From contig CAMNTH010000008.1 in the NCBI GenBank assembly GCA_946557785.1, positions 52,085 to 116,084 on the forward strand: a stretch of DNA of 64,000 bases, read 5' to 3'. Positions 14,228 through 63,139 of the stretch are shown here, piece after piece. This DNA is from an uncultured Blautia sp. GTDB taxonomy: Bacteria > Bacillota > Clostridia > Lachnospirales > Lachnospiraceae. The position numbers and the translations under genes are program-made. Position 1 is the stretch's first letter, and each line of letters starts with the position of its first letter. The notes beneath the pieces were generated by a model. That model made no database searches. It was not told where the DNA came from and worked only from the letters and a program-made list of their open reading frames with translations.

Positions 14228-17200
14228 ATGGAAAAAATGAAAGAATTATTTTTAAATCCTGGCAATGAATATAGAACGGCGCCTTTGTGGGTGTGGAATG
14301 CAGATATGAGCGGGGAAGAAATAGAAAAAACCCTGACAGAATTAAAGGAGCATGGTTTCGGAGGCGCCTTTGTTCATCCACGGCCCGGCATGAAGGTAAC
14401 TTATTTGGATGAAGCTTATTTTAAGGCATGGGGAAAGGCACTGGAAGCAGCAAAACGCCTGGGTCTGAAGCTGAATATTTATGATGAAAATTCCTATCCC
14501 TCCGGTTTTGGAGGAGGGCATGTATCCTGTGAACTTCCGGATTGCCTTTCTGAATCAGTCCGGTATCAGGTGTTTTCAGAAGCACAAATGGATTTCACTG
14601 AGAAAAAGTCGGATTGGCTTGGAGACAATGAAACAATTGCAGTATATGCCTGTGATAAAAAGAATGGAAAAATGGTCTTTTGTTATGACGTGACAGATCT
14701 GCCTGTTGGTGAATGGAAGGGTAAAGGAAGCTATTATGCAGTTATGACACATCTTCCATCTCAGACAGCAGGCTGGCTTGCAGGCTTTGCGGATATTGAC
14801 AGGCTACGCCCTGAGGTTACGGATAAATTTCTGGAAAAGGTATATGATGCTTATGCTGCACATTTCCAGGAGGACTTTGGTGATACCATTCAGGCGATTT
14901 TTACAGATGAGCCTGCCCTTCCGGGAAGTACGGTATACGGACGGGGAGGAGAAGGAACCCTTCCGGTGAACCATTGGTTTTCTTATGAATTCCAGAAAAA
15001 GAAGGGATACGATATCATGAAGGTGCTGCCTTGTCTCTTTGAAGACTGGGAAGGCTTTGAGAATGAAAAAATCCGTCATGATTATTATGAAGTGACACAG
15101 GAGCTTTGGGAAGAGAACTTTTTAAAGCCCATTCAAAAATGGTGCAGGGAGCATCACCTGCCATTTACCGGACATTTTATGGAGGATGGATGGCCGAAGC
15201 CCTATTACTGTGTAGTTTCCCCAAGTGTTATGGCAAGCTATGAGTATCAGGACTGGCCTGGGATCGACCTTCTTTTGACAGGAAGACTTAAAAATGAGCC
15301 AAGCGAAGTGCAGGAGATCAGTATGCTGGAGGTTATGAGTGCAGCTCACCAGTTTGGAAAAGAGAGGGTATTTTGTGAGGCTTACGGTGCCGGAGGCTAT
15401 GATTCCGGCCTGAAGGATTATAAGCGCATGGGCGATTATCTTTTTGTAAATGGAGTAAATTTCATTAATGAACATCTAACCTATACATCCTATGTAGGCG
15501 CAAGAAAAAGAGATCATCCTCAGTCCTTTGACTGGCGTCAGTCCTGGTGGAATGATTATACCCCTTTAAATGATTATTTGGGGAGAATGTGCGCTGTGCT
15601 GTGCCAGGGATATTCCAGAGAGCGGGTTCTTGTACTGAATCCCACCATGACCGGGTATATATGTCCAAAGGATGAAGATTCTTCTCAGCTGGTTTATAAT
15701 GTTTTGGCAAAAGAACCGAATATGAGACCATTCCTTCAGATGCTGCAGGATCTTCGGAGATTCCAGTGGGACATCAATCTGGGGGATGAAGTGATCATGA
15801 AGCGTTATGGGAAGATTGAAGGAGGGAAGCTTCAGATCGTAACCCAGCAATATGAAGTGGTGATCCTGCATGAATGTATCAAAAATATGCTGCCGTCTAC
15901 CATAGCCCTTTTGAAAGCATATATGGAACAGGGCGGGCGGATTTTAAGCGTAGGACGTCCAGGAGATTTTGTGTCCGGCGTGAAGCATCCAAAAATGTAT
16001 GAGGAGCTCTGTGCTCATGAGAATTATCTGATTTTTTCCGGAGAGGATGAAATGCTTGCATATTTAAATACTCATTACAGCAGGTATTTCCTTACAGATA
16101 CAGAGCTGCCGGAAGGTGTGGAAAGCATTCGCAGGGTTTTGGATGACGGAAGAGAGCTTTATTTTATTACAAACCACAGCAAAGAGGATGTTGATACAAA
16201 AATTCATTTCTATGGTACCTTCCTGGAGGATTGGGATCCGTGGAATGGAACCTGTATGATCCTGACAGCGGAGGAAGACGGGGAGAAGCTGACGGTTCCT
16301 CTGGACTTAAAAGACGGAGAATCACGATTATTCTGTGTGAACCACACTCCAAGTGAAAAGAGTGAGGTGCAGGACCTCGGGACAAAAACAGAAAGTGATC
16401 TATCTTCAAATGGGAAAGAGACAGATCTTGTACTTCAAAGAATCCTGCCGTTGGATGAGAACGTGTGGCCTTTGGAATATTGTGATCTCAGCATTGATGG
16501 AGAAACCTTCCGGGATTATTCTACGATTGCTGCAGGAAGCCATATATTTAAAAAGAGAGGATTTCTGGCAAATCCATGGGATAATGAAGTGCAGTATAAA
16601 GACAGAACCTACAAAAGAAATCGGTTCTATACTGAGAACAGTGGTTTTTCCGCAACATATCATTTCCAGATTGCGCAGGGATTCCGTCCGGAAAGCTTAA
16701 AACTTGCTGTGGAATATGGCGACCGCTATACGATTACGGTAAACAGGCAGCCAGTCCCTTCAAAAACAGGGGAATATTTCCTGGATCATTTGATTTCTCT
16801 TTATGATATTCATGAGCTGGTAAAAGCAGGAGAGAATGAGGTCTGTATTACGGCTTCTAAGTTTGATGTGGAACTGGAGCTGGAGGCTGTAATATTAAAA
16901 GGATCTTTTGGCGTATATCATAGGGGAAATGCATGGGTGATGGATGCGCAGGCAGACCTGAAGGCTGGAAGCATCATCGGGCAGGGCTATCCTTTCTATG
17001 CAGGAGCAGTTGTATATGAGGGGGGATTCCAAAAAGAAGAGGAAACCAGGGTAATGATCCAGGTTCCTGATTCAGAGGCAACGGCGGTCTCCATTACTGT
17101 GAACGGAGTATATGCAGGACCTGTGAATATCAATGGTGTGAAAGCCCTGGATATTACAAGGTATACAGTTTCTGGTAAAAATAAGATAGAGGCAAAAGTC

Positions 17201-54536: not shown

Positions 54537-55275
54537 GTATGACGGCATGCCGCCAGTCTGATGAAAGGTGAAAGTGGATGATACACTTTGACCAAAATAG
54601 TATGGAGCAAGGGATATGGTAATTACTATGGTGCCATATCAAACTATGAATGTATTACGTTCAATGACACAGCTGTGAGGACAATACAGACATGAAACTT
54701 CAATGGAACCAGATAGACTGGACGAGAGCAGAGGAATCAGTTAATAGGTTACAGATCCGGATTGCAAAGGCAACATTGGAACAGAAATGGAGATTGGTCA
54801 AAAGGTTCCGGTATTTAATGACAAGGCGGACAGAATTTCGTTTGGCTTTCGTAAATATAGAAGTCTTGAAGATGCCAGAGAATGCGCATTTAGTGTACTT
54901 AGCAGAAAAGACTCGCCATAATGAATATTGGAAGGAGATATTAAAAGTTGCTTTAATAAAATCAGTCACTAGTGGATAATGGAAAATATTCCAACAGATA
55001 AAAGAATGCTAAAAGAGTTTATGAAATGTGGACATGTAGAAAAAGGAAACTTATTTCCTACATCAGAAGAGTCCAAGTAGCGTAGCTACTTGAAGACAGC
55101 TATGCTGTATAGATGATGGCGGAGGTTCCCAACCACCTAAGGTGCTGTAGTCAAAAGCTATGGTATTGAGCATTAGGGAAAAATTTCGGTAAATTTAACC
55201 CATCGGTAATGAAAGGAGACTTTCACGTACGGTTCCGTGAGAAGTTTGAGGTGAAAATCCTCTTACTTACTTGAC
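54537..55275 (+). mobile_element. Internally deleted group II intron remnant
   Basis: 5' end GTATGACGGCATG (GUGYG-like); RT fragments; 3' D5/D6 TGAAAGGAGACTTTCACGTACGGTTC...CTTACTTGAC. Confidence 0.85.
54692..55080 (+). pseudogene. Group II intron reverse transcriptase fragments
   Basis: QWNQIDW..AEESVNRLQIRIAKA (N-terminal), then in another frame FGFRKYRSLEDA...**ILEGDIKSCFNKISH*W...LFPTSEE; stops and deletions. Confidence 0.88.
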
Positions 55276-56560: not shown

Positions 56561-56974
56561 ATGTGGTTTCTATTTGCTTTATTATCTGCAATATTTGCAG
56601 CACTCACTTCTGTACTTGCGAAAGTCGGCATTAATGGAGTTAATTCTACACTTGCTACTGCCATTAGGACAGTGGTTGTGGTTATTATGGCCTGGGGAAT
56701 GGTCTTTCTTACCAATACACAGAGCGGCATTTCACAGATCAGCAGAAAGGGCTGGATCTTTCTGATTCTTTCAGGTGCTGCTACGGGTGCTTCCTGGCTT
56801 TGCTATTACAGAGCCCTGCAGATGGGGGAAGTATCAAAAGTTGTGCCCATAGATAAATTGAGTGTGGTTATCACATTGGTTTTGGCATTTATTTTCCTGC
56901 ATGAAGAATTTACGGTAAAATCTTTGGTTGGATGCATTCTAATAGGCATCGGAACGCTGGTAATGGTAGTTTAA
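56561..56974 (+). CDS. EamA/DMT-family transporter
   Basis: ALLSAIFAALTS.LAK.G, VVPIDKLS. Confidence 0.9.
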   Translation: MWFLFALLSAIFAALTSVLAKVGINGVNSTLATAIRTVVVVIMAWGMVFLTNTQSGISQISRKGWIFLILSGAATGASWLCYYRALQMGEVSKVVPIDKLSVVITLVLAFIFLHEEFTVKSLVGCILIGIGTLVMVV

Positions 56975-57096: not shown

Positions 57097-57474
57097 ATGA
57101 GCTATGTAACAGGAAAGACGATTAAAGAATTAAGAGAAAGAAGGAAGATTACCCAGAAGGAGCTTGGGGAAAAGATTGGCGTAAGTGATAAAACAGTGTC
57201 AAAATGGGAAACGGAAAAGGGGCTTCCTGATATTGGAATTATTGAGGATTTAGCCGGGGCGCTTGGCGTTTCCATTGCGGAACTGTTAGCAGGTGATCTG
57301 AGGGAGAATAGGAATCGGTCGGCGAATATGCGGAAAATGTGTTTTTATGTCTGTCCGGTCTGTGGGAATATCATTACGTCTGTAGGGCATGGCTTTTTTT
57401 CCTGCTGTGGGATTGAGCTGCCGGAGGCAGAAGAAGAAAAGGATATTGTAATAGGCATGGAATGTTTAAAATGA
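57097..57474 (+). CDS. XRE HTH protein with desulforedoxin-like Cys motif, possibly C-terminally truncated
   Basis: TQKELGEKIGVSDKTVSKWE; YVCPVCGN...FSCCG; ends shortly after. Confidence 0.75.
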   Translation: MSYVTGKTIKELRERRKITQKELGEKIGVSDKTVSKWETEKGLPDIGIIEDLAGALGVSIAELLAGDLRENRNRSANMRKMCFYVCPVCGNIITSVGHGFFSCCGIELPEAEEEKDIVIGMECLK

Positions 57475-57753
57475 TGATTTGAATTATCTGTCATATCAGA
57501 AAAGAGCTTGGAAGAGGAAGAGTGAAAATGCATGCTGCATTTGATGGGGAATCCTGGTGACAGTACAGGAAAGGGAATGAGGCAGAAAAAAGGAAATTGG
57601 ATCTGATGACGTACAGATAGTTCATTTAAGTTAAAATTCATAAGCTGGCTCCTAATATAATTATAATATTTTATATAATATACGAACAGTGTGCCATATT
57701 CGGAAAAGCCTTCCAACAGTTATTGATACGGAGGCAGCATACATGTATAGTAC

Positions 57754-57786
57754 AAGGTAGGTGAAAGAAAAACACCTACCTTTCTT
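57754..57786. terminator. Hairpin downstream of the recombinase operon
   Basis: AAGGTAGGTG/CACCTACCTT perfect 10-bp stem. Confidence 0.7.
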
Positions 57787-57838
57787 ATTAACCTATCATA
57801 GAAGATCTATTATTTACAGAAATAAATTCAAACTTTCG

Positions 57839-58729
57839 TTAAAACAATGCTATCTGTCCATCACTGGCTATGTCAGGAACTTTGGCTGACATATTTTCAT
57901 CAGATAATGGATTTTGTGGTTTTGGTCCTTTGTTCGAATACAATTTGCTCATCGGCAGCGGCTTCTGTGTCTTTTTGTTATAAGCCAGAAGCATTGCTTC
58001 CGCATATCCACGAGAACCGGCACTGCGTTCTCGTGCAGTTCTTGTAAGTTCTTTTAAGGATACTACCCCTAGTTTTTCAATGAAAACATTGTCCTTCATA
58101 GTGTCCCCAAAACAATGTATGAGACGGGCAACACCATTAAGCATGTTTGCACTGAATGATTTTGGACTTCCTTCCCATGCACCAATGATCAGGCGTAGTG
58201 TCCGGTCTAATATCTGAAAACTGTATTTGTCATGGATGGATTCCAGCGTAGCTACAGCACAGATATTTCCGGGAGCAGCTTTGTTTGCAATCTTCATATT
58301 GTAGGATTCTACCAGTGACCGTATAATCAGCTGCTTATCGTTCCCAGCTTCGATGTTTGCCATGAAGATCTCATATGGTGTCAATGACTTGGTATATTTT
58401 GTCTGGTTAGCAAAAATTTCCGCTTCTCTTTGATATTCCAGATCATCATAGATCATGCACCATACCGGCGTTTCACGGGAACCTGATACAAGAGCAACAG
58501 TTTCTATTGTATGCTGGCCGTCAAAAACATAGTTAATGCCATTGCGTCTGCTTACTTTCACTGCATTAATCTGGCAGACATCAAAATTAGTAGCTGTTGT
58601 ATTTACATGCTTATCAGACAATGTTCGTTGATAATTCTGATCGGATACAAGATTTTTGATTGGTATCAGTTCAAAATGGACAGGGGGTATAAAAGGTGCA
58701 AAGCATTGAAAGACTATTTCATTATTCAT
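57839..58729 (-). CDS. ParB-like protein (DUF6551-like)
   Basis: LVSDQNYQRTL...VKVSRR...YVFDGQHT; ends GQIALF. Confidence 0.8.
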   Translation of the reverse strand: MNNEIVFQCFAPFIPPVHFELIPIKNLVSDQNYQRTLSDKHVNTTATNFDVCQINAVKVSRRNGINYVFDGQHTIETVALVSGSRETPVWCMIYDDLEYQREAEIFANQTKYTKSLTPYEIFMANIEAGNDKQLIIRSLVESYNMKIANKAAPGNICAVATLESIHDKYSFQILDRTLRLIIGAWEGSPKSFSANMLNGVARLIHCFGDTMKDNVFIEKLGVVSLKELTRTARERSAGSRGYAEAMLLAYNKKTQKPLPMSKLYSNKGPKPQNPLSDENMSAKVPDIASDGQIALF

Positions 58730-59675
58730 GATATCGTTCCTCTATTCGTTTCCTGATTTTTTCGATACTCTCGGTAAGGTTGAATAATGTTTGCTCCAGT
58801 TTCCAAAGGGCAGAAGTAGATGCATTGCTAAAATCCGTTATCTCTATAGCTCGGTTAATGGAACTGATCCACATTGGTATTGTAAGAGTCAGGCTGGATA
58901 AGTCTGCATCCGGATCATATTTGGGCCTGAGTTTTATTGCCGGTGTAATCTTACGTTCTTCCGCAAGAAGTTTTGCTTTCTTTTTTTCCCGTTCCTGGGT
59001 ACGCATAAGGGATGGCTGCAGTAATCGGTTGTCACGATTATTTACAATATGATCACGGATCACCTGGATTTCTGGTGCAGACATTTTGGAAAGTCCTATT
59101 GTATCGTTCTGTGAAAGGTGGAAAACTGCACGAAGAATATCATCTGCAATTTCCGGACATTTCGCAGCAATCTTATCTATCGCTATAGAATACATTCCAT
59201 ATTTGGAAACTGTTCCTGGAGTAATCTTAACTTTATCTCCTAACAAATCAGCGGCAATGTTTTTGGTGCCAAAACCTTTCTGGTGCCATTTCATATCATC
59301 AGGAGTGTATTGATTTTGATGGCGGTATTTTTCTATCATAATTAATTTCATTGCTTCGTAGAATTTTCCAACACGATAACGAAGCTGTTCAATGGTACCC
59401 TGGTGGCTGGCAAGATGAATCTGACACATATGTGCAACGGCTTCCGGGCGAGAAGCGATATCGACTTCCTTTAGAGTAAAAGGGATTTTTCGTGCATGAT
59501 AGATTTCGTATTCAGAATATCCTGATAAAAGGATTTTTCGCCACACGAGTAAGGGTCTGGATCCATTTTTGATTAGGTCAGCTCCGAGGATGGCCTTTTC
59601 TTCTGAAGAGAGAAGCGTATCAAGCCTCTTGAATTCCGGATCCAGGATTAAATTGTAAATGCGTTGTTCACTCAT
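58722..59675 (-). CDS. Protein with degenerate ParB/Srx-like N-terminus and HTH-like middle
   Basis: LILDPEFKRL..LLSSEE..L...G.RPLLVW..ILLSGYSEYEI; NIAADLLG..KITPGTVSKY. Confidence 0.7.
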   Translation of the reverse strand: MSEQRIYNLILDPEFKRLDTLLSSEEKAILGADLIKNGSRPLLVWRKILLSGYSEYEIYHARKIPFTLKEVDIASRPEAVAHMCQIHLASHQGTIEQLRYRVGKFYEAMKLIMIEKYRHQNQYTPDDMKWHQKGFGTKNIAADLLGDKVKITPGTVSKYGMYSIAIDKIAAKCPEIADDILRAVFHLSQNDTIGLSKMSAPEIQVIRDHIVNNRDNRLLQPSLMRTQEREKKKAKLLAEERKITPAIKLRPKYDPDADLSSLTLTIPMWISSINRAIEITDFSNASTSALWKLEQTLFNLTESIEKIRKRIEERYHE

Positions 59676-60039
59676 TATTTAATTCCTCCTGAGCAGTGGT
59701 TGGTATTGCTTCGTTTAGATTAAAAAGTATCAGATTCTCTTTAGCTACATGAGTACCGTATATTTTGTACATCTGACGTTTCCACGATGGCTCAAATAGT
59801 TTGCAGAGTCTTGTTATCAGTAATTTACTGTAGAATTCGCAGCACTGTTTATCTCCAAAATGGATCCATCTAACTCTTTCACCTGTATTAGTCGGACATT
59901 TCTGAATAGCCAGCATTTTCTGTTCCGGATTGATCAGGAATTGGATATTATTTGGACTGTTCAGAAGGTAAAGAGTCTGTCGGTGGATACGCAGGCGGTG
60001 GATATTACAGTCAATAACTATGGATGGCTGTCTGTTCAT
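59668..60039 (-). CDS. Hypothetical protein, 123 aa; paralogue of the recombinase C-terminal domain
   Basis: Start re-placed at ATG 60039 after GAGGA; IQFLINPEQKMLAIQKC, YKIYG, LILFNLNEA. Confidence 0.75.
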   Translation of the reverse strand: MNRQPSIVIDCNIHRLRIHRQTLYLLNSPNNIQFLINPEQKMLAIQKCPTNTGERVRWIHFGDKQCCEFYSKLLITRLCKLFEPSWKRQMYKIYGTHVAKENLILFNLNEAIPTTAQEELNNE

Positions 60040-60700
60040 AGGTATTATCCTCGCTTTCTGATGAGCCTGATGCGGGTTTAGAAGAAGTTTTGATTGCATC
60101 TTTCTGCAGACCGAAGACTGCCTGACCATTGAATATACTGATCTGCACAGCAGATTTATGGTCAGGTACCGGCATACCAAAGTCATTTTTCCATTCTTCA
60201 AGGAATACTGGAGTACGGGAAATTTTTGTTTTTCCATCTTCTTTAATAGTGCGTTTATAGATTTCCGGAGTATTTAGATCGAAAACAAACAGATATTGAC
60301 CGTTTGCTTTTTTTAGTTTTCCTAGCAGTTTGTACTTGTAATCGATCTGCCAGTTCATAAGAGTAAATACTTTCGCAAAAAACATGCGGCAGGTGATTTG
60401 TTTTGGTGAACGATTGGCGGTAGCAGAACACCAGCGGAAAGAATCTTTTTCATCTTCCATGCAAGGTCTGACTGCCAGTTTCTTCTCATCCGGATTGACC
60501 ATGATCTGAACATAGTCATATTCAGGAAGCTTTTTTAAACATGCCTTGTTTACCTGAACTTTATAATTGTTAAAGGTAAGTGACGGCTCAAAGATGTGGG
60601 AAAAGAATTCGCCGCGAACTACCTGATAGCCTTCAAAGCTAAATTTGTCATCAATTTCTATATCATCCGCCAGAACTTGTCTGTTCATTTCAGCATTCAT
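60011..60700 (-). CDS. Hypothetical protein, 229 aa; paralogue of the recombinase C-terminal domain
   Basis: FEGYQVVRGEFF, VQIMVNPDEKKLAVRPC, YKYKLLG, WKNDFG. Confidence 0.85.
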   Translation of the reverse strand: MNAEMNRQVLADDIEIDDKFSFEGYQVVRGEFFSHIFEPSLTFNNYKVQVNKACLKKLPEYDYVQIMVNPDEKKLAVRPCMEDEKDSFRWCSATANRSPKQITCRMFFAKVFTLMNWQIDYKYKLLGKLKKANGQYLFVFDLNTPEIYKRTIKEDGKTKISRTPVFLEEWKNDFGMPVPDHKSAVQISIFNGQAVFGLQKDAIKTSSKPASGSSESEDNTYEQTAIHSY

Positions 60701-62567
60701 ATTGTGTATTCTCCTTTATTTCTAAAATAATCATGTCTATATGTTTCTTTAAATCACTTTTACTTGTAATATCCGGCAAAGGCTCAGGTTCATAGGTTGA
60801 TTTGATCTCTGTATTCCAGTCTTTTTCGGTAAGGTGGGCAAATTCAAATGCCTGTGCCTGATAATAAAACCCATTCCCGAAGCTGTGAATCCAATCTTTC
60901 GGATACGCAGATACACTTACTTTAGTTCCCAGAGGCTTTACATCATCCTCAAAGAATGGCTTTTCTGACGAATCATAATCCTCTGTTTTTTCCAGGATGG
61001 AATTGGGAATCAATGCTTCTGCATCATGTAGATTAAAGAGAATAAAGCTTTCAGTTCCATATTGCTTTCGTGTTCCGATTACACGGTATTTATAACTTAT
61101 ATTCCAACCAAATAATTCGAACAGATTAGGCAGAAATGCGGAGCCGGAAATCTGTCTTGGATAACGCTGGCCATTTGTAACCGTTGACCAGTGAAGCGCT
61201 GTTTTACTTTTGGATTCTGCAGGTCTGACAGCGAAACAAAATTTTTCCGGATGCACGAGAAATTCCACATGATTAGAATCAAGCTTTCTGACACATTCCG
61301 TGGTGAAAACTACAGTTTTAGATGAAAAAGTAATGCGGATCTGATTGGCGGTATCGAAAAATTCAGCTCTTGCCACTTCATATCCTCTCAGGTCAAATTC
61401 GCCTGATTCAACCGTTACGGACGGCTCCATTTCTTGATTAGACGTTTTATAAAGAGCTGAGTATGCTTTCTTATAATCACTTGCCTTAAAAGCAGCCCAT
61501 CGGGGGTGCACGGTAATAAATCCTTTCAGAATACCAGTAGTGATCACATGCAGTTTTGGAGTGGGATCTGCATTTCCATGCTTTGCACTGGCAATCAAAC
61601 GCTGAACAGCAATGAAATCTGAACGTGAAATGATTGCTTCATGATGTTCTTTTTTTCGATACTGATTGCGGTTCTGTTTGTTCTTTTTAGACTTATGGTC
61701 AAGATAGTTTGGAGTATATGTTTTTCTTGCAAGCACATCACCACAATGGCGTTCATTTTCCAGTTGCTGAAGTACTGTATTGGCTGACCAGGAAGTATTT
61801 CCAAGTTTTGTTTTTCTTTTTAAATCCGTCAAAATCTTTGCAATTTCCTGACAGGTATAGCCATACAGATACATGAAAAAGATCAGGCGGACGGTCTTAG
61901 CTTCTTCTTCATTGATGACTAATGTACCTTCTTCATTATGGTCGAAGCCAAGTAATGGAGGAGTCAGGAAAATACCGCGGCGAAAGCGCATTTCTATGGA
62001 TGCATTCATGATCTCACTTTTGTTATGACTTTCTTCCTGAGCTAGTGTAGAGATAAAGGATAGACTCATTTCGCTGTTACTATGTAAGGTGTAAATGTTT
62101 TCTGTTTCAAAAAACACTCCGATAGGAGGATTGAGAGCAGCAAGCTGGCGGACATAACCGATGCAGTCAAGGACATTTCTGGCAAAACGGGAAACGCTTT
62201 TGGTAACAATCAGGTCGATTTTTGCGGCATGACAATCTTCGATCATCCTTACAAAGGCATCTCTGTGTGACAGGGAAGTTCCAGATATTCCTTCATCTGC
62301 ATATATTTCGACAAGTCGCCATCCTGGATGCCTGCTTACCACATCCTGATAGTGGTTCTTTTGTAATTCATATGAAGAAGTCTGACGTGGATCATCAGTG
62401 GAAACTCTTGCATAGACAGCTACTCTTTTCTCGCTTTCATCATCATAAAAACTTGTCTGAGGAAGAGCTGGGATAACGTCAAGTTCATCTACATTGACAC
62501 CTGTGTATCTGCGGCGTATTTTCTCCTTTTGAGATAATCGGTTTTCTGCTTTTTTGTTGTTATTCAT
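60690..62567 (-). CDS. Large serine recombinase with an atypical C-terminal domain
   Basis: VAVYARVS56T, IYADEGISG, KSVSRFAR, AQEESHNKS, recombinase domain (LGFD, NE.HCGD, HEAII). Confidence 0.93.
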   Translation of the reverse strand: MNNNKKAENRLSQKEKIRRRYTGVNVDELDVIPALPQTSFYDDESEKRVAVYARVSTDDPRQTSSYELQKNHYQDVVSRHPGWRLVEIYADEGISGTSLSHRDAFVRMIEDCHAAKIDLIVTKSVSRFARNVLDCIGYVRQLAALNPPIGVFFETENIYTLHSNSEMSLSFISTLAQEESHNKSEIMNASIEMRFRRGIFLTPPLLGFDHNEEGTLVINEEEAKTVRLIFFMYLYGYTCQEIAKILTDLKRKTKLGNTSWSANTVLQQLENERHCGDVLARKTYTPNYLDHKSKKNKQNRNQYRKKEHHEAIISRSDFIAVQRLIASAKHGNADPTPKLHVITTGILKGFITVHPRWAAFKASDYKKAYSALYKTSNQEMEPSVTVESGEFDLRGYEVARAEFFDTANQIRITFSSKTVVFTTECVRKLDSNHVEFLVHPEKFCFAVRPAESKSKTALHWSTVTNGQRYPRQISGSAFLPNLFELFGWNISYKYRVIGTRKQYGTESFILFNLHDAEALIPNSILEKTEDYDSSEKPFFEDDVKPLGTKVSVSAYPKDWIHSFGNGFYYQAQAFEFAHLTEKDWNTEIKSTYEPEPLPDITSKSDLKKHIDMIILEIKENTQYEC

Positions 62568-62779: not shown

Positions 62780-63139
62780 ATGGTAGATTTCAAGTTGATT
62801 GGATTAAGAATTAAGGAAAAGCGTTTTGAAGAGCAGATTACACAGGCATATCTGGCGGAGCAGGCAGATCTTTCTCCGCAGTACCTGAGTCAGGTGGAAG
62901 CAGGAAAAAAGAGAATTAGTTTGGAGTCGTTAGTAGAAATTGCAAGGGCATTACATACGACTGTGGATGATTTGTTAACAGGAAATCAGTTTGATACAGA
63001 GGATCAGTATGTAAGAGAAATCAGTAAGCTGTTGGAAGACTGTTCAGTGACAGAGCGGAAAATCATGTTTGAACTGATGGAGACAGTAAAAAAAGTTATT
63101 CATGAAAATATAATTTATTTTGAAAAGACAAGAAAATAA
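62780..63139 (+). CDS. XRE-family regulator divergent from the recombinase operon
   Basis: IGLRIKEKR...TQAYLAEQADLSPQYLSQVEAG. Confidence 0.9.
   Translation: MVDFKLIGLRIKEKRFEEQITQAYLAEQADLSPQYLSQVEAGKKRISLESLVEIARALHTTVDDLLTGNQFDTEDQYVREISKLLEDCSVTERKIMFELMETVKKVIHENIIYFEKTRK

Follow-up and report, generated by a model that had tools for sequence, protein, structure and literature searches.

Serine recombinase gene and its catalytic half

The stretch of DNA analysed here (hereafter, the window) comprises 64,000 nucleotides (nt) from an uncultured Blautia sp. (GenBank assembly GCA_946557785.1, contig CAMNTH010000008.1, positions 52,085 to 116,084 of the forward strand), and its minus strand carries the gene of a serine recombinase of 625 amino acids (aa), termed SR, which heads a five-gene operon. 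An earlier reading of the sequence alone had claimed that the region between positions 60690 and 61620, which is the 3' half of the gene and encodes aa 316-625 of SR, lacks the zinc-ribbon/coiled-coil region of canonical enzymes. In integrases of the phiC31/Bxb1/A118 type, the zinc domain reads the distal sequence of the attachment (att) site and the coiled coil sets directionality. The zinc ribbon of these canonical enzymes has four cysteines and contains the coiled coil as a long antiparallel insertion; they join attP to attB with a 2-bp crossover, and the reaction is reversed only when a directionality factor is present. The SR gene and the segments of its product are as follows (AF2, AlphaFold 2 model; pLDDT, predicted local distance difference test; pI, isoelectric point).

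60690..62567, minus: SR serine recombinase gene, a 625-aa open reading frame (ORF) with the Pfam domains Resolvase and Recombinase only and at least 120 full-length homologues
62430..62567, minus: N-terminal extension, aa 1-46, with conserved K14, I17, Y21, G23 and I32-P33-A34 in the homologue alignment
61974..62423, minus: Resolvase catalytic domain, aa 49-198, nucleophile S56 (PF00239, E 2e-25; 3g13, E 5.8e-36)
61590..61910, minus: Recombinase domain (RD), aa 220-326 (PF07508, E 1.6e-22; aligned by Foldseek with SPbeta integrase chains across ~300-350 columns)
61410..61589, minus: post-RD segment, aa 327-386, β-hairpin and helix (…LxVIxxGxLKGFVSVNPRWAGF…) with near-invariant alignment columns and AF2 pLDDT ~90
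60978..61409, minus: X domain, aa ~387-530, β-rich and basic (pI ~9), AF2 core pLDDT >90, no relative in Pfam, the PDB or BFVD
60693..60977, minus: acidic tail, aa 531-625, with an AYPxxWxxxFG motif common to the neighbouring protein X1 and a terminal 22-residue helix (aa 603-624)

A Pfam scan covering the Resolvase and Recombinase domains as well as Zn_ribbon_recom, proposed together with the earlier claim, detected the first two domains and not the third, and placed the end of the RD at ...HEAIISRSDFIAVQRLI. Residues R54, S56, R127 and R130 were invariant in an alignment of 74 SR homologues, with S56 lying in the invariant motif R54-V55-S56-T57, and the closest solved structure of the catalytic domain was 3g13, the recombinase of a Clostridium difficile conjugative transposon (42-46% identity). 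Judged by these conserved residues, SR is predicted to be a catalytically intact member of the large-serine-recombinase superfamily. As in integrases of the phiC31/Bxb1/A118/SPbeta SprA type, an N-terminal Resolvase domain with a serine nucleophile is followed by a Recombinase domain. The full-length AlphaFold model of SR (pLDDT 69) matched solved structures of serine recombinases (3g13; SPbeta integrase 9dxh/9y66) over no more than its first ~300-350 residues.

Searches with NCBIfam profiles returned only partial matches of SR below threshold, to CcrB, CcrC, CcrA and XisF, all of which stopped at aa ~364. The SCCmec recombinases CcrA/CcrB/CcrC were thus the best matches in that collection; however, the scores were far under the family cut-offs (CcrB, E 1.2e-25, aa 45-364, 90 bits against a cut-off of 900), and the match ended at aa 364, short of the X domain. 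IS607-type transposases carry an N-terminal MerR-like HTH ahead of the catalytic domain; their profile gave a weak, partial match to the catalytic domain of SR (E 4.9e-5, 22.9 against 110 bits). Small serine resolvases and invertases (~180-210 aa) have a C-terminal helix-turn-helix (HTH) and no RD, whereas SR, with 625 aa, has the RD and no HTH_7 (Pfam, E<=0.1).

The extension of ~45 aa before S56, to which the sequence-only reading had also pointed, is present (~46 aa) and gave no HTH match in Pfam, but it is not special to this recombinase. An extension of the V-I-P-A type also occurs in at least one zinc-domain (ZD)-type enzyme, the canonical zinc-ribbon recombinase of the Lachnospiraceae phage locus L176 ('SVTVIPARSQ'), and therefore the extension does not distinguish the SR subclass.

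Replacement of the zinc-ribbon/coiled-coil module

Beyond aa 326 of SR, neither Zn_ribbon_recom (PF13408) nor DUF4368 nor any other Pfam domain was detected at E<=0.1. A regular-expression scan found no CxxC or Cx2-5C pattern in the entire protein; the only cysteines after aa 326 were C425 (TTECV), C444 (KFCFA) and the terminal C625, in agreement with the earlier observation that no CxxC pair and only isolated cysteines (TECV, FCF) follow the RD. The homologues listed (at least 120; 58-89% identity, ~100% coverage) carried PF00239 and PF07508 only, with no DUF4368, among their precomputed domains. As a positive control, ZD-type recombinases from the same fetched loci did score PF13408.

A ZD profile was compiled from the post-Recombinase regions of 27 canonical zinc-ribbon recombinases lying in the fetched loci. 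In hhalign comparisons with this profile, the C-terminal profile of SR reached a probability of 1.1% and the family of X1 one of 0.03%, and PF13408 was not detected at E<=10 across 56 members of the X family. A separate AlphaFold model of the C-terminal 296 aa of SR (pLDDT 80, predicted template-modelling score 0.74, core >90) was β-rich, and its helices were short. Among the helices predicted beyond the RD, the 22-residue one at the C-terminus was the longest, and the AF2 models of this region predicted no helical hairpin. Foldseek comparison of the C-terminal model with the PDB gave nothing significant (best E 0.19, sliding-clamp-like noise) and no large-serine-recombinase chain, unlike the full-length model, which did match SPbeta integrase chains by its N-terminal half. 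The fold search against BFVD was uninformative, with uncharacterised phage proteins as the best matches (best E 2.6e-3, TM-score ~0.23), and a sequence search of the PDB gave no match for the C-terminal 309 aa of SR or for a 56-sequence profile of the repeated domain. The prediction was inspected for a cysteine-less zinc fold with a coiled coil, and the outcome was negative, so that the claimed absence stands. Pfam, cysteine content, AF2, Foldseek and hhalign agree on this point, and we regard it as established that the zinc-ribbon/coiled-coil module of the SR subclass has been replaced by a previously undescribed domain. SR thereby differs from integrases of the phiC31/Bxb1/A118/SPbeta SprA type, carrying an unrelated module of ~240 aa in place of the zinc ribbon and coiled coil.

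It would still be conceivable that the C-terminus of SR is a strongly diverged zinc ribbon devoid of cysteines and that the enzyme acts as an ordinary large serine integrase. The conserved β-hairpin and helix (aa 337-372) lies where canonical enzymes begin the zinc knuckle and could be a relic of the first knuckle, and the alignment with CcrB reaches aa 364, into this element. Moreover, in both the MAFFT and the hhalign alignments the invariant W460 falls opposite the zinc-ribbon W-x-C, and the X1 family retains four nearly invariant cysteines. These likenesses are opposed by the hhalign probabilities against the 27 zinc domains, by the lack of a PF13408 signal in SR (E<=0.1) and in the 56 X-family members (E<=10), by the lack of any large-serine-recombinase chain in the Foldseek results for the C-terminal model, and by predicted helices that are all too short for a coiled-coil hairpin. 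With hhalign negative, a degenerate zinc ribbon was rejected as the description of the X domain and kept only as an improbable alternative.

The sequence-only reading had further stated that a repeated domain follows the RD, and this repetition proved to be real. Two stand-alone paralogues of the C-terminal region of SR are encoded directly downstream.

60011..60700, minus: X1, 229 aa, stand-alone paralogue of the whole C-terminal region of SR (BLASTP E 2e-18)
59668..60039, minus: X2, 123 aa, minimal X domain (BLASTP E 8e-7 and 4e-7), position kept in most loci

The segment of SR from aa ~377 to 520 was 32% identical to X1 (E 2e-18), and its similarity to X2 was weaker (E 8e-7). In the alignment, the paralogy between SR and X1 spanned the entire C-terminal module, including the X core, the (Y/F)PxxWxxxFG motif and the acidic end with …ENT-YE, and SR may be regarded in effect as a catalytic domain and a Recombinase domain joined to an X1-like protein. 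The X cores are basic (pI ~9) in SR, X1 and X2, and the tails are acidic; residues P556, W559, F563, G564 and Y568 of the SR tail were invariant in the homologue alignment. The X1 family contained 1102 proteins without any Pfam assignment. An exhaustive profile search yielded 2,111 cluster representatives of X-domain proteins, mostly stand-alone proteins of 120-300 aa, and a Pfam scan of 56 X-family members at E<=10 returned scattered noise only, the domain being covered by no Pfam family.

The four nearly invariant cysteines of the X1 family correspond to C54, C80, C91 and C104 of X1 in the window, of which the X domain of SR retains only the first (C425). They could form a metal site confined to the free paralogue.

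The predicted pattern of two β-β-α-β-β units had prompted a comparison of X with the duplicated swapped hairpin of AbrB/MazE/MraZ-like proteins, which was rejected as unsupported. No SpoVT_AbrB or MraZ match was found by Pfam at E<=10 in the 56 members or among the 50 Foldseek matches listed, all of them non-significant, and hhalign of the first half of X against the second, as a search for internal duplication, gave a probability of 0.1%. A short protein of the form 'Resolvase+X' (P0354) had been considered as evidence for DNA binding by X and was withdrawn. P0354, P0355, P0357, P0359 and P0361 share an identical X1-like C-terminus of ~220 aa on unrelated N-termini (a GlmS amidotransferase, a recombinase N-terminal extension that runs to 'RRVAAY', a protein of the Resolvase type and two unknown sequences), and therefore P0354 and its group are probably read-through or chimeric ORFs. 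Four of the five are joined at one point, between …Y and EENTTIMPPEKQ, and they look like ORFs running through the insertion junctions of an element with an X1-like terminal gene, or like assembly chimeras.

Five-gene operon and the elements that carry it

The remaining genes of the operon and the features that border it are listed below.

58722..59675, minus: P317, 317 aa, uncharacterised, with an invariant C-terminal PxYDPD…T…W…R motif and conserved synteny
57839..58729, minus: DUF6551 protein, 296 aa, ParB/DGQHR fold (PF20188, E 1.2e-35; TIGR04172 weak; PHROG ParB-like)
57754..57782, minus: terminator-like hairpin 3' of the operon, a perfect 10-nt inverted repeat
62780..63139, plus: XRE-type HTH regulator (Pfam HTH_3), divergent from the operon
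57440..57650, no strand: inferred interval containing the element end on the DUF6551 side, with a broken-off HTH-desulforedoxin-like ORF and an AT-rich block nearby

The genes are arranged in the order SR, X1, X2, P317 and DUF6551, and they overlap by 11 nt (SR/X1), 29 nt (X1/X2), 8 nt (X2/P317) and 8 nt (P317/DUF6551). Of the ~88 loci fetched, which come from many genera, mostly of Lachnospiraceae and Oscillospiraceae, nearly all that are complete keep the five-gene synteny and the architecture of SR. The same gene order recurred in virtually all of the 80 species-representative genomes retrieved with the SR family profile, as well as in the metagenomic contexts of two homologues. A homologue of HTH119 adjoins SR in nearly all loci. 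Isolates with the operon include [Ruminococcus] torques ATCC 27756, Blautia, Dorea, Butyrivibrio and Kineothrix. The size and conservation of the family (at least 120 homologues; nearly all complete loci) justify the distinct recombinase subclass that the earlier reading had raised as a possibility. It is established that SR belongs to a large, conserved subclass of the large-serine-recombinase superfamily with an undescribed domain that is also supplied in trans by two adjacent paralogues, and that two further proteins, of which one at least has a ParB fold, always accompany SR; that the subclass also differs in site recognition and directionality, as the earlier reading held it must, is plausible.

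Of the five genes, DUF6551 is the most strongly conserved (58-79% identity across loci). Its product falls within the fold group of ParB/KorB/DndB-type nucleoside triphosphate (NTP)-binding proteins; a link of such proteins to a serine recombinase operon was, however, not found in the searched literature. In a published screen, fusions of DUF6551 to the ParB-CTPase fold bound CTP or ATP (10.1101/2025.10.10.680097). For P317, no relative was found in Pfam or the PDB, and its relation to ParB is only a weak lead; a clear ParB assignment was rejected, its sole support being one source name ('ParB N-terminal domain-containing protein') and a Pfam match at E 0.068. No PADLOC model matched SR, X1, X2, P317 or DUF6551, and an assignment as an anti-phage defence system was rejected for that reason. 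The literature searched for DUF6551, for zinc-ribbon-less serine recombinases and for Heliusvirales integrases gave no account of this architecture or operon.

In the window, the DNA that borders the operon beyond DUF6551 is chromosomal. An HTH-desulforedoxin-like ORF at 57097-57474 (plus), an XRE-HTH with a CPxCG…CCG motif, loses its similarity to a 197-aa homologue (L056) after aa ~113-118, and the missing remainder was not found in 57450-57860. The ORF is cut short with no remainder nearby, and therefore the element end was placed between ~57440 and 57650, the host gene being broken ~200-400 bp beyond DUF6551; the HTH-desulforedoxin-like gene is probably the insertion target of the element in the window. 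The AT-rich stretch at 57650-57685 is similar to the terminal block of relatives inserted in cpaF. In the other direction, the element runs past the right edge of the window with HTH, DUF1848 and DUF3990 genes. Insertion into a truncated EamA gene was ruled out, the 137-aa EamA being full length and highly conserved. This half-size EamA/DMT transporter (56561-56974, plus) had homologues of at least 79% identity in at least 80 genomes, from hosts labelled Lachnospiraceae, Oscillospiraceae, Erysipelotrichaceae, and Bacteroides and Flexilinea metagenome-assembled genomes, which reflects either unusually strong conservation or wide horizontal spread.

The cpaF group comprises relatives whose recombinases are 56% identical to that of the window and whose elements are 88-99% identical to each other at the DNA level. 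These elements all terminate 476 bp past DUF6551 with …TTATATAGTACATATAA, and the cpaF/tadA-type ATPase gene is cut right after the …DMLQA codons in no fewer than four species-level genomes, from Dorea and its relatives; L118, a fifth locus, shows the same terminus, with a contig that breaks off at the junction. Identity among the host cpaF alleles is only 59-81%, which implies independent, site-specific insertions. Like integrases of the phiC31/Bxb1/A118/SPbeta SprA type, SR lies near the ends of integrated elements and prophages, and for related copies the insertion site falls within a conserved protein-coding motif. Two other proposed targets, cpaF in L097/L098 and the HTH-desulforedoxin-like gene in L155, were rejected, as the gene was intact or of another architecture. 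The terminus of the cpaF-inserted elements (L162 15296-15312; equivalents in L122, L138 and L115) is formed by a near-palindrome, TTATAT(A)GTACATATAA, which abuts the junction, is preceded by ~35 bp of pure A/T and could serve as the binding site of a dimeric factor. In L115, an IS110-family transposase gene (402 aa; 15538-16746) lies within the last ~60 bp of the element and splits the near-palindrome from the rest.

The closest relative of SR (88% identity, L175) is encoded in an operon that adjoins a relaxase and MobC, with no other recombinase within 10 kb, and by its gene content the carrier resembles an integrative and mobilizable element (IME). DNA similarity between the window and this relative was limited to the segment from HTH to DUF6551. 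In the published element IME_Rho_tet, the recombinase gene comes last, at a distance of 81-90 bp from the element end (PMC12904643); it was rejected as a described equivalent of the SR operon, since the position of the recombinase marks a different module.

The operon was also found in ~15 prophage loci and in 20 GenBank phage records (Ca. Heliusvirales, Lachnospiraceae hosts). In the prophage copies, it stands beside two convergent canonical zinc-ribbon recombinases and lysis genes, and the two recombinases are homologues of the integrases paired at the terminus of Streptococcus prophages. L176 and L178 (PV036411.1, PV036418.1) and 18 further phage records have three serine recombinases, namely the ZD-less one and the convergent zinc-ribbon pair, and in the Heliusvirales records all five operon genes are annotated merely as hypothetical proteins. 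In the prophage context, the element boundary lies 1.9-2.7 kb upstream of SR. Three unrelated flanks at this junction (L003-L005) have only YCGTCTC in common: the upstream boundary (L003 7250-7265; L004; L005 3841-3856) reads (C/T)CGTCTC-N, followed by the common sequence ACATGCGGTG…, which suggests either that the target is a short motif or that crossover takes place a few bases further in than the apparent boundary. In L003, a terminator-like hairpin of ~45 bp (GCCGGTAAGCAAATC…CACCTACCGGCCCTTTT) occurs as a direct repeat (14787-14835 and 15597-15645) that flanks a 68-aa gene and an HTH_17 gene between DUF6551 and the first canonical recombinase.

Genes adjoining the operon often encode defence-like or conflict-related cargo, such as AbiJ/Abi_C, PARG, type IIG-like methyltransferase/endonucleases of 932-941 aa, McrBC nearby, and DUF1848/DUF3990 (L003 7399-8280; L006 125-1006; L115 5139-7964; L175 17418-20862; L011 8630-11095).

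Function of SR and competing explanations

The explanation that we favour, at a probability of roughly 0.55, is that SR acts as the integrase/excisionase of the mobile element that carries it, because it combines an intact catalytic core with an RD, is located by site-specific junctions and, in some elements, is accompanied by no other recombinase. According to this model, the X domain would replace the zinc domain in contacts with outer-site DNA and/or between subunits. Synapsis and the control of direction, which normally depend on the coiled coil and a directionality factor, would run via X-X or X-DNA interactions with X1 and X2, and P317 and DUF6551, both ParB-fold-like, would serve as further DNA-bound accessory factors. 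The basic charge of the X cores and the tight operon fit these proposed roles of X, X1 and X2 without testing them. Small serine resolvases and invertases, which are controlled by extra DNA-bound subunits rather than by a coiled coil, may offer a functional analogy. SR differs from integrases of the phiC31/Bxb1/A118/SPbeta SprA type in having four co-conserved, translationally coupled partners, two of which are paralogous to its own C-terminal module, and the directionality factors of serine integrases known to us are unrelated single proteins.

Several observations weigh against this assignment. Besides SR, ~15 prophage loci carry the two canonical ZD-type recombinases, ~110 bp beyond DUF6551, and the cpaF-inserted elements bear two tyrosine recombinases further upstream; therefore another enzyme could be the integrase in those elements, and it is from position that we infer that SR, rather than a co-resident recombinase, makes the element junctions. 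One junction was recovered per element, and neither a pair of att sites nor an empty site, a circular form or an excision product was obtained: the other ends of the elements lay outside the fetched DNA (they were not within the 10-kb flanks, where the C-terminal half of cpaF was not found either), and low-coverage Logan contigs of public runs contained no joints representing empty sites or exact junctions. DNA binding by X is suggested by its charge and its position in the protein alone, the 'Resolvase+X' fusion P0354, as a probable read-through or chimeric product, being unusable as support. Finally, we know of no integration module for which two ParB-like partners are a trait.

In an alternative explanation, the operon is a module for maintenance or regulation, for example for multimer resolution combined with a ParB-type system that partitions or silences an excised or episomal form of the mobile element, and other recombinases perform the integration. 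The co-conservation of two ParB-fold-like proteins, the rank of DUF6551 as the best conserved gene, the nucleotide binding of its fusions to the ParB-CTPase fold (10.1101/2025.10.10.680097) and the recombinase pair owned by the prophage copies, with its Streptococcus terminal-integrase homologues, would all agree with such a role. We nevertheless consider it unlikely, as the C-terminal module of SR was nearly absent from plasmids (72,556 records), the RD is typical of integrases and transposases and not of resolvases, no other recombinase occurred within 4-10 kb in the extension of the window and in L175, and the operon lies only 0.2-2.7 kb from element junctions. A self-contained, small transposon-like unit with relaxed target choice, which enters other mobile elements and prophage ends and uses X1, X2 and the ParB-like proteins as target selectors, would explain why the window and its 88%-identical relative resemble each other at the DNA level only in the segment from HTH to DUF6551, why the operon occurs in IME-like islands, defence-gene islands and prophages, and why the three unrelated flanks at the upstream junction of L003-L005 have YCGTCTC alone in common; the similarity of its catalytic domain to the conjugative-transposon recombinase 3g13 points the same way. 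However, the cpaF insertions were strictly site-specific, no pair of ends was found closely flanking the operon, and the regions common to genomes stretch over more than 10 kb on one side, which makes such a unit quite unlikely.

SR resembles the TndX/TnpX-like clostridial recombinases of the DUF4368 clade in having 3g13 as the nearest catalytic structure and in its host range among Clostridia; it differs in that neither DUF4368 nor a zinc ribbon was detected and in that at least one SR clade is strictly site-specific for cpaF. The DUF4368 clade is the 'multi-targeting' clade of Durrant et al. 2022 (PMC10083194). That survey selected its proteins on PF07508, and therefore SR-type proteins would have been included, although it discusses the DUF4368 clade only.

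Beyond the integrase/excisionase assignment, SR may represent a separate mechanistic class, in which X would be a new DNA-binding or oligomerisation fold in place of the zinc-ribbon/coiled-coil, and X1 and X2 in trans, together with two ParB-fold NTP-binding proteins, would select the target and set the direction as parts of a multi-subunit, possibly nucleotide-gated machine. This proposal is put forward tentatively. In the current model, it is the zinc domain and its coiled coil that tell attP from attB and keep recombination one-way, and the SR clade can be used to test the generality of this model and may reveal a second means of directionality control. For genome engineering, a specificity module that also exists as separate small proteins could, speculatively, ease re-targeting. 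For studies of gut bacteria, the operon is a marker of a family of integrated elements and Heliusvirales-like prophages that is common in Lachnospiraceae and Oscillospiraceae and carries defence-type cargo.

Two minor observations concern other genes. Recombinases of ~490 aa (L105 16473-17627 and related), which form one member of the prophage pair, carry two tandem zinc-ribbon motifs (CxxC…WxC…C twice). In the window, at ~54692-54979 (plus; L001 9066-9353), a 95-aa ORF with the RVT_N domain alone is followed by a 33-aa ORF, and it is probably the remnant of a group II intron or of a retron-type reverse transcriptase.

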